A stretch of DNA of 54,199 nucleotides from an uncultured virus (IMG/VR IMGVR_UViG_3300028569_000044) (IMGVR_UViG_3300028569_000044:1-54199); one strand, 5' to 3'; numbered from the stretch's first letter, positions 9,730 through 53,820 are shown. The notes: generated by a model not told the origin, from the sequence alone. Numbers and translations are program-made.

Positions 9730-9807
9730 AATTCCATAATACAACGAAAATGATTTAAGTCAAGATTTTTTGACGTTTTATTCTATGACAAACTATTTAT
9801 TATTGTT

Positions 9808-9963
9808 ATGGGGAGAAAAAAATTAAACAAAACTAAAGATGAATTACTTGAACAACAACGAAATCGTGCAAAAAGATATTATCAACGACACAAGCAAAGA
9901 CTTAACAAAAAATCAATGCAGAAATATTGGGAAAATAAGCGGAATTTACAAAATAGTAAATAA
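9808..9963 (+). CDS. 51 aa basic 'MGRK' leader ORF overlapping the GIY-YIG gene (not in ORF track)
   Basis: MGRKKLNKTKDELLEQQRNRAKRYYQRHKQRLNKKSMQKYWENKRNLQNSK*; ATG follows TATTTAT motif; differences from the 13265 copy are mostly synonymous in this frame. Confidence 0.75.
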   Translation: MGRKKLNKTKDELLEQQRNRAKRYYQRHKQRLNKKSMQKYWENKRNLQNSK

Positions 9964-13203: not shown

Positions 13204-13264
13204 AAATGTTTTTATTTAAATATTTTTTGACGATTTATTCTATGACAAACTATTTATTAATGTT

Positions 13265-13426
13265 ATGGGAAGAAAAAAATTAAACAGAACAAAAGATGAA
13301 CTACTTGAACAACAAAGAAACCGAGCAAAAAAATATTATCAACGACATAAACAAAGACTCAATGAAAAGTCAATGCAAAAATATTGGGAAAATAAGCGGA
13401 ATATACAAAATAATAAACAAGATTGA
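13265..13426 (+). CDS. 53 aa basic 'MGRK' leader ORF overlapping the GIY-YIG gene (not in ORF track)
   Basis: MGRKKLNRTKDELLEQQRNRAKKYYQRHKQRLNEKSMQKYWENKRNIQNNKQD*. Confidence 0.75.
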   Translation: MGRKKLNRTKDELLEQQRNRAKKYYQRHKQRLNEKSMQKYWENKRNIQNNKQD

Positions 13427-48649: not shown

Positions 48650-49943
48650 TTGGAGGAATTCTCACTATGATCTCAATATATAACCTCCACATTACTTTGT
48701 CAAACATAAAATTATTTTCATTATTTTTCACTTTTTGTATTTAAAATATATACTTATATGAAGTGATAACATATAATACACAACTTTTAATGAAAAATCA
48801 AGAAGACTTTGATAGTTTAAAGTCAATTCTTGAAATGCATAGAGTTGTATTTAACTTTGCTTCACAACTCCAATTCAAAGAAACAAAAAATAGTTTAGTA
48901 GTTTTACATTCTAAAGTATATAATAACATTCGTAAACAATATTCAAATATACCATCTCAAGTTATCATTAAAGCAGAACAAGAATGTTTATCAAGTTATA
49001 AATCTACAAAGTCAAATAAACATAAATTAAAAAAATCAATTGAAAAGAAAAATCTTTCAATGCGGTTGGATAAAAGACTTTATTCAAAAAACAAAAGTGA
49101 TAAATATTCAATTCGTATAACCACCACTTCTGGAAGACAATCTTTTAAATTTGTAGTATATCCAAAACTAAAAGAATTATTGGACAAGTATGAATATACA
49201 GATCCTCTAATTTATGAAAATGATGGTAAATTATTTATATCATTTACATTTGATAATAAACCCAACGAACAATTAAAACAAAAACTAGCATTAGGAGTTG
49301 ATATTGGCATTCGTAGAAATGTCGCTTGTAGTGATGGTAGAATAGTCATTGATAGAAAATTCAACGGGGATAAACGCAAACTTCGTCATCTAAAAGATAA
49401 TCTCAAGTCTAAAGGCACCAAAAGTGCTAGAAGACATCTTGGTAAATTAAGACATAAAGAAGCTAACAAAAATAGAAATCAAACTCATTTAATAGCTAAT
49501 TTAGTATTAAAAACAGAAGCAGATACTATTGTATTAGAAAATTTAAATGGTATAAAGAAAAAGAAACATAAATATCAAAATAAGCGTTCAATTGGACAAG
49601 TGCCAATGTTTGAACTTCGTAGAGTAATATCCTATAAGGCGGAGAACCTTGGTAAATCGGTTCTACTAGTTCGCCCTTATTATACATCACAGATTGATAG
49701 TGTTACTGGCAATCGTGATGGAGAAAGAAGAGGTTGTAGATTTTATTCTAAGAACGGACTTATTTATGATGCGGACATTAATGCAGCAATTAATATTGCT
49801 AAATTGTCCAAACTTCCCGTATCACAGACTAATTACCTGACTTATGGGCAGGCTGTTGTCAATCAGCCAATCGTATGTAAGCCCTCTGTTGCACAAACAG
49901 CGGCATTACAAGCCCCTATGGCTTTAGCCTAGGGGTTGTTGAC
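48650..49943 (+). mobile_element. tnpB-only (IS1341-like) derivative of the same IS200/IS605 family
   Basis: Right-end hairpin identical to 24193-24215; no tnpA; left boundary inferred. Confidence 0.75.
48763..49932 (+). CDS. tnpB: RNA-guided nuclease TnpB (paralog of 23049..24212)
   Basis: LGVDIG, IVLENL, YTSQ, DADINAAINI. Confidence 0.92.
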   Translation: MITYNTQLLMKNQEDFDSLKSILEMHRVVFNFASQLQFKETKNSLVVLHSKVYNNIRKQYSNIPSQVIIKAEQECLSSYKSTKSNKHKLKKSIEKKNLSMRLDKRLYSKNKSDKYSIRITTTSGRQSFKFVVYPKLKELLDKYEYTDPLIYENDGKLFISFTFDNKPNEQLKQKLALGVDIGIRRNVACSDGRIVIDRKFNGDKRKLRHLKDNLKSKGTKSARRHLGKLRHKEANKNRNQTHLIANLVLKTEADTIVLENLNGIKKKKHKYQNKRSIGQVPMFELRRVISYKAENLGKSVLLVRPYYTSQIDSVTGNRDGERRGCRFYSKNGLIYDADINAAINIAKLSKLPVSQTNYLTYGQAVVNQPIVCKPSVAQTAALQAPMALA

Positions 49944-52562: not shown

Positions 52563-52589
52563 AATATGCTATAAGTATTTTATTAAACT

Positions 52590-53128
52590 ACAGCGGTTTA
52601 TTTATATTTGAGCCGCCAGGCATACTTTGCAAGTATCATCTGCCGGATTTGAAACTAACTGAATACAATTCACCTATTGCTAGGTATGAATATGTATCAT
52701 AGTAGTTTCAATAATGTATATCTGCCGTCTGTAGGATATGGTCCCTGTCCTACACAGGTTCTATGCGCAACATAACAGAGTCTATTAACCATAGCTAATG
52801 CTATGCAACTCAATATTATCTATTACATCTATATGCGGAGGGAAGCGGCTACCTCTTTAACCTCACGGTGCGTCAATTCATAATTTATGAAAAGCATTTT
52901 TCACCAATGATAATATATTCTGATTATCTCTAATCAAGCCCGGTAATGTTTGTGTCAGGGAAAGCTTTTTAACTTTCTTGCTTTTTTGTGCTCTGTTGCG
53001 TGAGCTTTGGACTGGTCGGTCTGATTCAAGTATCTCCGGTTAACAAGATACAGGTCATTTTTTATTCTACCGCTCCAATTGTTTTTTACCCAATATGATG
53101 CCCTTCATCACAAAGTAAAAAAGTTACT
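52590..53128 (-). ncRNA. Candidate large structured ncRNA (~540 nt), family unassigned
   Basis: No ORF >=60 aa, raised GC, nested helices, GNRA-capped hairpins on - strand, TATTTATA motif immediately upstream. Confidence 0.65.
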
Positions 53129-53183
53129 GCATATAAATATCTAGCCGTCAACAAAAACAAAAATATATTTGAAAATAAAAAAG

Positions 53184-53212
53184 AAAAACCTCTTGTAGAA
53201 GGGCTACAAGAG
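53184..53212 (-). terminator. Rho-independent terminator upstream of the candidate ncRNA
   Basis: CCTCTTGTAG/CTACAAGAGG stem followed by long T tract on - strand. Confidence 0.7.
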
Positions 53213-53346
53213 GAAAGCTTTGGGGCTTTTTTAACCCTATCAGAGGGACTGATAGAGTAAAGATTAATAGTGGGCCTATCAATCTTTTAGAACAGGAAAT
53301 GAAGCCTGTAATATTAACTATATACAACTTAACAAAAGATACAATT

Positions 53347-53820
53347 TTATTTGTTGTATTCTTCACCAAAGACACAACTAATCACAACACTATTTTGAGG
53401 CCAATAATAAATTTCTTTATCATCTGTTGTAAAAATGTCTATTACTACACGCTTATAACCTTTATGCCAGAATTGGGGTTGACTTCCATTTATATAACAC
53501 TTTATATAACTAAGTGACTTATCTCTATCAAACAAATGTTTATCCATAAAAACTAAGTCGTCATTTATTTGATGTTTAAAAATTTGTTTATTTAGTTCAT
53601 CATTTTTAGCATAATACAAACCATTCTTATTACACCACTCCGTCATATCCTCATTGGAATAAAGACTGGTAGCACTTCTATAAGTCGTGGTTTCACTATT
53701 AAAAATGAAATCACGCTTTCTATAAAGCATATTCGTTTCTGGTTGCGTTGATATTGCACCAAACACTGCTACGGATGGCAATGCGAGTGCGGTTGATGTA
53801 ATAAATTTTCTGCGGTTCAT
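53347..53820 (-). CDS. Hypothetical protein with twin-arginine signal
   Basis: MNRRKFI + hydrophobic segment. Confidence 0.6.
   Translation of the reverse strand: MNRRKFITSTALALPSVAVFGAISTQPETNMLYRKRDFIFNSETTTYRSATSLYSNEDMTEWCNKNGLYYAKNDELNKQIFKHQINDDLVFMDKHLFDRDKSLSYIKCYINGSQPQFWHKGYKRVVIDIFTTDDKEIYYWPQNSVVISCVFGEEYNK

Follow-up and report, generated by a model that had tools for sequence, protein, structure and literature searches.

A Probable New Large Structured RNA and Its Predicted Small RNA Partner in a Clade of Uncultivated T4-Like Jumbo Phages

Introduction

To our knowledge, bacterial and phage noncoding RNAs (ncRNAs) longer than ~400 nt with complex conserved folds are rare, and almost all of them are either central machines or puzzles (OLE, GOLLD, and ROOL). 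A record of an uncultured virus in IMG/VR raises the question whether a further RNA of this kind exists. The record is 54,199 nt long (completeness of 15% according to CheckV) and was analyzed over its whole length, referred to here as the window; it has about 30% G+C and is densely filled with small genes on the minus strand. One gap between these genes (52563–53346) was the subject of an initial annotation, which proposed that positions 52590–53128 encode a large ornate ncRNA on the minus strand with its own promoter motif and a resemblance to ROOL and GOLLD. Does the gap encode an RNA, how is it built, and what could it do? In the following, "cassette" denotes the large RNA together with a small RNA (sRNA) predicted upstream of it on the same strand; the coordinates of all features are collected in table 1.

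Results

Coding Potential and Composition of the Gap

The initial annotation described the gap as ORF-free and GC-richer than its surroundings, and both properties were recovered: all minus-strand ORFs within the gap are at most 38 aa long and the G+C content is 0.34–0.37 compared with 0.22–0.31 in the immediate flanks. TAA, TAG, and TGA are each present in all six frames and no frame is therefore opened by the recoding of a stop codon; alternative genetic codes were excluded on the same grounds. Coding through a 50-aa ORF that is found in some variants was rejected because this ORF is not conserved. The single-sequence fold of the annotated stretch has a free energy of −133.4 kcal/mol and, in the comparison with shuffled controls that had been suggested as a check, is modestly better than the shuffles (z = −2.5 for the minus strand and −2.16 for the plus strand), so the case for an RNA stands on covariation and not on folding energy.

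Homologs and Distribution

Twelve homologous loci were identified and bring the total, with the window included, to 13 sequences, of which 10 are distinct; they fall into about five variant types. Of the loci reached via neighboring proteins, L002, L003, and L004 (upstream 157-aa protein) and L016 (downstream 84-aa protein), only L002 is one of these homologs. An invariant 20-mer was used to scan metagenomes and matched 14 loci, consisting of 11 new homologs, a slice of the L002 contig (L025), and two chance matches in GC-rich coding DNA that were left out. The entire gap is kept in L002 (84% identity) and L004 is without the gap. In L003 and L016 the cassette is absent and replaced by other DNA, and their similarity to the window within the gap is limited to the 48 nt directly preceding the downstream gene; the flanking gene of these two loci nevertheless encodes a protein with 90–98% identity to that of the window. 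Among the loci the cassette is intact while the flanking genes vary (two upstream and three downstream families), and none of the immediate protein neighbors is constant.

Two side observations were made in the DNA around the cassette. The segment that stands in its place in L003 (4413–5135) contains an 86-aa ORF without a family match and ~460 nt of noncoding DNA, which includes a second copy of the leader motif of the downstream gene (AAGAGTAACGC..AAAT..AAATAAAC). A ~170-nt insertion between the 157-aa gene and the sRNA is found in L002 (4466–4642), L017, L021, and L030 and contains a pair of strong promoters of the sigma-70 type: TTGACT-N17-TAGGAT and, positioned to drive the sRNA, TTGACT-N18-TAAAAT.

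Searches in other collections and within the known records yielded no additional homologs. Scans of IMG/VR with four different invariant 18–19-mers returned only the contig of L002 plus two chance matches (L031 and L038). One exact 18-mer produced six matches in the GTDB species genomes, all six of them by chance (19–29 nt), in a search that diverged bacterial copies could escape. A blastn search of GenBank phages in distant mode matched nothing, and the 263-aa neighbor protein, used as a synteny probe, gave 39 pattern matches and zero relatives. Further copies of the cassette were not found by whole-record blastn of G001–G003, nor further copies of either RNA by nhmmer --max profiles on the window and all loci. 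The family is known only from one clade of closely related uncultivated T4-like jumbo phages.

Covariation and Strand of the Large RNA

The 13 sequences (10 distinct) were aligned (alignment A5). An unguided RNAalifold analysis of A5 predicted 113 pairs and found compensatory change on both sides in 19 of these, and an unguided scan for stacked, always-complementary, and covarying columns recovered the same helices and one overlapping helix. The proposed structure consists of 112 pairs in 19 helices and shows standard pairs in 99.3% of 1097 cells. Two-sided changes were identified in 21 of the 112 pairs compared with 0–3 when the partners are slid by 1–3 columns, and the 21 compensatory pairs come from one clade and represent few independent events in perhaps three lineages. 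The covariation score (0.204 compared with 0.018–0.053 for slid partners) was reached by 0 of 500 shuffles.

Read on the minus strand, 99.3% of the cells are paired compared with 90.2% on the other strand; the G.U wobbles (103 cells) fit the minus strand only, which assigns the large RNA to this strand. The central claim of the initial annotation, a large, ornate, and independently encoded ncRNA on the minus strand, is thus upheld by the two-sided pairs and the wobbles alike. The large RNA is 77–95% identical to the window whereas the third codon positions of the neighboring gene are 88–90% identical. Because the RNA diverges faster than these positions, the constraint acts on the structure and the junction blocks and not on the whole sequence. 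Invariant blocks of 20–50 nucleotides are located between the helices, and three invariant single-stranded motifs contain CCGG; the helices change fast yet stay paired, and the junctions are frozen. We conclude with high confidence that the gap encodes a genuine, previously uncatalogued, large structured RNA.

Architecture of the Large RNA

Table 1. Coordinates of the RNA features and of selected genes in the window.
Feature	Position	Strand	Details and basis
RMF-like gene, 59 aa	53827–54006	−	Ribosome modulation factor domain PF04957, E = 1.2e-09; directly upstream of the 157-aa gene
157-aa protein gene	53347–53820	−	Upstream neighbor of the sRNA
−10-like TAAAAT of the sRNA	~53350–53345	−	Sequence
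Partner sRNA, ~140–170 nt	53343–53184	−	In 12/12 loci with enough upstream flank
sRNA hairpin CAGG/CCUG, in the conserved 5' part	53308–53293	−	sRNA
sRNA C-rich-loop hairpins	53282–53264 (GCCCA), 53255–53237 (UCCCU), 53229–53214 (CCCAAA)	−	Folds of each variant
sRNA terminator hairpin	53213–53189	−	10-bp stem, loop CCCUU 53203–53199, U-tract 53188–53177; terminator scan; stem covaries
U/A-rich linker, almost invariant	53183–53123	−	TTGACG 53151–53146, TATTTA 53138–53133
Large RNA, ~520 nt	~53127–52605	−	Covariation and homology limits
5' hairpin	53122–53082	−	Outer stem 53122–53117/53087–53082; inner stem 53110–53106/53100–53096; loop AAGGG 53105–53101
Invariant junctions around hairpin P2	53007–53078	−	P2 = 53051–53045/53036–53030, UUAACCGG in the loop
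Central domain	53000–52766	−	Closed by CGCAACA (53000–52994)/UGUUGCG (52772–52766)
Central-domain hairpins	52977–52961, 52936–52921	−	Structure on A5
Central-domain helix	52916–52909 with 52820–52813	−	2 compensatory pairs
Further central-domain helices	within 52905–52867, 52866–52837, 52836–52825, 52811–52778, 52805–52790	−	Structure on A5
Pseudoknot or two-state switch	52758–52730	−	CCUG (52758–52755)/CAGG (52747–52744) overlaps UGUAGGA (52754–52748)/UCCUACA (52736–52730)
Long irregular hairpin	52711–52649	−	Cap = GCAA tetraloop 52680–52677
3' hairpin GGCAGAU/GUAUGCC, optional tip	52644–52619	−	Helix 19, 94% of cells paired
Tail GGCGGCUCAAA after the 3' hairpin	to ~52605	−	Homology among loci stops at ~52605
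Leader/promoter region of the downstream 84-aa gene, outside the RNA	52563–52604	−	L003 48/48 nt identical; L016 94%; both without the RNA
Acb3-family gene (CBASS inhibitor), 234 aa	50044–50748	−	PF25187, E = 4.7e-41; ~2 kb downstream of the large RNA
TnpB-like gene pair, 387 and 389 aa	23049–24212, 48763–49932	+	Cas12f1-like TNB domain E ~5e-13; OrfB_IS605 weak
Loop version CCCUU/AAGGG			Window
Loop version UCCCU/AGGGA			L017, L018, L024, L028, L029
Loop version GCCCA/UGGGC			L002, L019, L021, L022, L026, L030

The 5' hairpin (helices 1 and 2) displays two-sided change in 5 of 11 pairs with none broken, and its loop occurs in three versions (AAGGG, AGGGA, and UGGGC). Hairpin P2 (helix 4) carries one compensatory and three wobble-type pairs, and the candidate helix around it (helix 3, UUGGA/UCCAA and GGU/ACC) never varies. 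A 7-bp helix bridges 230 nt to close the central domain and shows compensatory change in three of its seven pairs and no broken pair; helices 7, 8, and 11 (the latter GAGG/CCUC) add one, two, and two compensatory pairs. Further downstream, two helices overlap (helices 15 and 16), one with a single compensatory pair (CCUG/CAGG, UA to AU) and the other with four out of seven (UGUAGGA/UCCUACA), and all cells of both are paired; this arrangement could be modeled either as a tight pseudoknot or as two alternative hairpins. The long irregular hairpin (helix 17) has the same fold in all seven distinct variants despite substitutions and indels, with two compensatory and two wobble pairs and an ACAA loop in 2 of the 13 sequences. 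Beyond ~52605 unrelated sequence follows in L019, L022, L024, and L026, and this position, as judged from the sequence comparison, is taken as the 3' limit of the large RNA.

The initial annotation had named individual helices and these fared differently. Compensatory changes were found in the 5' hairpin (53122–53082), the GTATCT/AGATAC stem (53051–53030), the TGTAGGA/TCCTACA stem (52754–52730), and the ~63-nt irregular hairpin (52711–52649). The ATACTT/AAGTAT stem is an optional hairpin tip, which is present in the window, has changed in L017, and is missing through deletion from the 11 remaining sequences. Three further pairings had to be abandoned. The 3' half of the proposed closing helix (AGCGGT/ACCGCT) belongs to the leader of the downstream gene, which is common to the RNA-less L003 and L016, and reads AGCGCT in seven homologs and is absent in four with a different downstream context; AGCCGC/GCGGCT lacks two of its six 5' bases in 11 of 13 sequences; and ACC-GTGA-GGT is displaced by the covarying GAGG/CCUC helix. 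The annotated extent (52590–53128) accordingly captured the large RNA but placed its 3' end at 52590 instead of ~52605.

The Upstream sRNA and a Predicted Loop–Loop Contact

The terminator that the initial annotation placed just upstream of the large RNA was recovered as a hairpin followed by a U-tract (53213–53189, minus strand) and forms the end of the predicted sRNA. The sRNA contains three or four hairpins with CCC loops, the terminator among them, and RNAalifold predicts 38 pairs, six of them compensatory. The sRNA of the window has one C-rich hairpin more than those of the other 11 loci.

In 12 out of 12 loci the terminator loop and the loop of the 5' hairpin of the large RNA are exact reverse complements, and the two occur in three matched versions (table 1). 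The complementarity comprises 5 nt, or 7 nt if the G-C closing pairs are counted. As a helix, the five kissing pairs include three with two-sided change and are 100% paired in the seven distinct rows, compared with zero in slid controls. The stems of the two hairpins are not copies of one another and the arrangement is therefore no inverted duplication. The two loops are linked, only ~100 nt apart, and are therefore inherited jointly; linkage leaves the complementarity within each version unexplained and that complementarity alone argues for pairing. The large RNA thus probably contacts the hairpin of the co-encoded sRNA through a predicted kissing loop, and the chances that the kissing would occur in trans or within one read-through RNA are roughly even. 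A second candidate contact, between a second C-rich loop and an xGGG sequence of the pseudoknot region, fits 10 out of 12 loci and was rejected because it fails in L018 and L024.

Transcript Ends and Expression

The start of the large RNA must be located between 53184 and 53122 because the covarying outer stem begins at 53122. The linker that separates the terminator from the 5' hairpin either acts as the large RNA's promoter or forms an internal part of a read-through transcript. A scan for sigma-70 promoters from the terminator to the 5' hairpin called none; if TATTTA serves as the −10 element, transcription would start near 53127. TTGACG, the best match to a −35 element, combines with a single −10 candidate (TAACTT, 19-nt spacer), and TTGACG-N19-TAACTT was rejected as a promoter because the resulting start would cut off the covarying outer stem. 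The motif that the initial annotation regarded as the RNA's own promoter (TATTTATA, 53139–53132) is present and kept in 12 out of 12 homologs, and a promoter role is plausible but unproven. Its plus-strand reading, TATAAATA, was dismissed as a T4-late-type promoter word, with 16 occurrences in the window compared with 15.2 expected. No terminator was found after the large RNA.

Parts of the large RNA are included in metatranscriptome contigs from four studies (1720, 413, 182, and 195 nt). The 1720-nt contig covers genes and both RNAs and the 413-nt contig lies wholly inside the large RNA (52643–53063). These RNA-library contigs were recruited with this very stretch, are possibly DNA-derived, and show neither ends nor strand, and they give a weak hint that the large RNA is expressed. 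Gaps in coverage in three RNA runs are uninformative because the runs consist of contigs found with this stretch.

On the plus strand, positions 53132–53240 contain TATAAATA and, after it, the complementary sequence of the terminator hairpin and another hairpin, which has a U-tract, and the region gives weak matches to Phe_leader and to a CrcZ terminator-like element. A short antisense transcript from this region is conceivable from its sequence, with the reservation that TATAAATA is not enriched in the window.

Comparison with Known RNA Families

Rfam includes GOLLD, ROOL, OLE, HEARO, raiA, group I and II introns, RNase P, 6S, and tmRNA. A cmscan search of the whole window against Rfam 15, one of the checks suggested at the outset, gave zero matches at the gathering score. 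When the threshold was relaxed to E ≤ 10 (for 1.2 kb and for the 553-nt core), chance-level matches to DdR4, LhrC, Phe_leader, HCV_SLVII, and CrcZ were obtained with 13–20 bits against cut-offs of 55–110. For the sRNA, LhrC ranks first in Rfam, but its 19.2 bits (E = 5.6) lie below the cut-off of 110 and are not significant. The earlier assessment that the large RNA has no assignable family and may be new agrees with these searches, and the large RNA looks like a new RNA family. No description of it was found in the literature. Those sections of a study on IMG/VR mining that were available (PMC10690425) present motifs of 29–151 nt only, and the supplementary alignments of that study could contain sub-hairpins of the large RNA. 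The available portion of PMC12619734 makes no mention of ncRNAs.

The Phage and the Genomic Surroundings

The complete relative that carries locus L002 (G001) is 295,831 nt long and encodes a T4-type major capsid gene (PF07068, E = 3.7e-58); no match to an RNA polymerase beta-subunit domain was found in this genome. Sigma-70-type promoters (TTGACT...TGGTAnnnT) precede many of the small same-strand (minus) genes in the window, and the phage appears to rely on host-type promoters. The window resembles an early or accessory region in the genome of a T4-like jumbo phage. Besides the Acb3-family, RMF-like, and TnpB-like genes (table 1) it encodes a LAGLIDADG and a GIY-YIG endonuclease, a thymidylate synthase, and a glycosyltransferase, and a search of seven flanking proteins against Pfam and PHROGs identified no informative family. 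A total of 17 DNA runs from 10 studies contain at least 36% of the stretch's sampled words, two of the runs being possibly its source; they are labeled as lake, fresh, drinking, or river water, and once as marine plankton.

Two further features of the window were recorded. The N-terminus of the 157-aa protein (MNRRKFITSTALALPSVAVFGAIS) is the same in four homologs and reads like a candidate twin-arginine export signal, judged by its residues. A near-identical promoter-like/leader pair of ~60 nt (TTGACG...TATTTA...GGGGAG) is located on the plus strand at 9770–9830 and 13227–13290, before a 264-aa gene and the GIY-YIG endonuclease gene, respectively.

Discussion

A Two-RNA Cassette and Its Possible Role

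We lean toward the interpretation that the gap harbors a two-RNA cassette (~53343–52605, minus strand) within an early accessory-gene region, in which the large RNA and the sRNA dock and act in trans as a scaffold or decoy. Host RNA polymerase would make both RNAs early in infection, and the sRNA would dock to the large RNA through the kissing loop, either in trans or inside a read-through precursor. The large RNA folds into at least 17 helices, from the fast-evolving 5' hairpin to the 3' hairpin, and the folded complex may act in trans on a host or phage factor, as a scaffold or a decoy, during host take-over or counter-defence, and would not regulate a neighboring gene. This assignment to host take-over or counter-defence is tentative, with a chance we put below even, and draws on the early-region setting, the independence from neighboring genes, and the presence or absence of the cassette among near-identical phages; homology does not indicate any function. 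A more specific version is rather unlikely: a new class of large phage RNA that operates as a two-RNA machine, possibly with higher-order RNA-only assemblies formed via the invariant CCGG and UUAA motifs, and with which T4-like jumbo phages capture or mislead a host factor, for instance the ribosome, a nuclease, or a defence protein that senses RNA. If true, it would be the first RNA of the large ornate kind for which an RNA partner is identified and a genetic handle exists.

Alternative Explanations

The two parts could instead belong to a single RNA of ~740 nt (53343–52605) that is transcribed from the TAAAAT promoter, reads through the terminator, and contains the linker and the kissing hairpins internally. 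The lack of a convincing promoter between the terminator and the 5' hairpin, a start that must be located upstream of 53122, the nearly invariant linker, the co-occurrence of both parts in 12 out of 12 loci, and the 1720-nt RNA-library contig that spans them all agree with such a transcript. A contig that covers two parts does not prove one transcript, however, and the hairpin with its U-tract is a canonical intrinsic terminator in a phage that appears reliant on host-type promoters; in addition, the invariant block contains TTGACG, the −35 hexamer of this phage's early promoters. On balance we doubt the single RNA but regard it as a serious candidate. An RNA-only homo-oligomer in the manner of GOLLD and ROOL, with protomers joined by the self-complementary UUAA and CCGG motifs and the kissing loop, is unlikely: size and phage setting are similar and three invariant single-stranded motifs contain CCGG, but neither sequence nor structure matches GOLLD or ROOL, and the CCGG motifs never vary.

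A role in cis, in which the large RNA would be a long structured 5' UTR (leader) with control over the downstream gene or genes, is considered very unlikely. The 84-aa gene does lie on the same strand with no terminator in between; yet the downstream gene comes from three different families among the loci, its own conserved leader persists in relatives without the RNA, and in four loci a sequence resembling a TTGACT promoter lies between the RNA and the gene that follows. The presence/absence pattern among close relatives, and the two TnpB-like, one LAGLIDADG, and one GIY-YIG genes in the window, would suit a ribozyme or a degenerate, mobile element similar to an intron (group I or group II, or a guide RNA for the TnpB-like genes), but models of introns and ribozymes give no match even when E ≤ 10 is allowed, and the RNA profile has no second match in the window, which includes the TnpB flanks. 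A group I or II intron was rejected because no gene is interrupted (the 157-aa protein ends in ...FGEEYNK both with the RNA, in the window, and without it, in L003) and the downstream gene starts with its own conserved leader. The omega RNA of TnpB or IscB is encoded on the strand of its nuclease gene, either at the 3' end of that gene or overlapping this end; the large RNA was rejected as such because it is on the minus strand and the TnpB-like genes are on the plus strand, the nearer one 2.7 kb away. A mobile element of any of these kinds is hence highly improbable. Least probable of all is an element that acts at the DNA level (a replication origin or packaging site) or nonfunctional intergenic DNA. 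It would agree with a single-sequence fold that is modestly above shuffles on either strand, whereas compensatory changes over long range and G.U wobbles that fit one strand only indicate a single-stranded RNA, the repeats typical of origins are missing, and the structure is kept through fast sequence change.

Significance and Relation to Known Systems

The large RNA has a well-supported secondary structure that includes a long-range helix and a pseudoknot or switch. The presence or absence of the cassette among near-identical phages constitutes a natural knockout, and the co-evolving RNA partner offers a direct experimental handle by loop swaps. It is encoded among early take-over and counter-defence genes in a T4-like jumbo phage that is abundant in freshwater, and for this reason its function may be relevant to phage–host conflict.

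Several C-rich-loop sRNAs pair with G-rich hairpin loops, such as LhrC, RsaE, and the 3' domain of Staphylococcus aureus RNAIII including its terminator hairpin. The upstream sRNA shares the CCC loops, at least one of which is predicted to meet a GGG loop of its target RNA. Its likeness to LhrC is limited to the C-rich loops and the terminator, and its score is below the cut-off of that family; furthermore, the predicted target is an adjacent large noncoding RNA and not the ribosome-binding site of an mRNA. RNA pairs of the ColE1 RNA I/RNA II type present a similar picture of a small multi-hairpin RNA that kisses, loop to loop, the 5' hairpin of a structured RNA of ~500 nt, a contact that is predicted here. 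The two members of such a pair are fully complementary and come from opposite strands of one stretch of DNA, whereas the sRNA and the large RNA are arranged in tandem on one strand with just 5–7 complementary nucleotides that are kept by compensatory change, and nothing indicates a role of the two RNAs in replication.

GOLLD and ROOL often lie beside tRNA genes in phages or prophages, although this location is not strictly defining; no tRNA or tmRNA was identified in the 54,199-nt window by ARAGORN. The resemblance to these two RNAs proposed by the initial annotation holds in kind, in size and phage setting, and does not extend to membership, as the large RNA matches no Rfam model. GOLLD and ROOL are described as forming RNA-only complexes in the available part of a recent preprint (bioRxiv 10.1101/2024.12.08.627333). 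Like them, the large RNA is several hundred nucleotides long, with many helices and highly conserved junctions in between, and is encoded by phage DNA without an adjacent protein partner; GOLLD is, by its name, partly lake-derived and the large RNA comes from a freshwater phage. What sets the large RNA apart from GOLLD and ROOL is its occurrence in only one clade of T4-like jumbo phages and its co-evolving partner sRNA.
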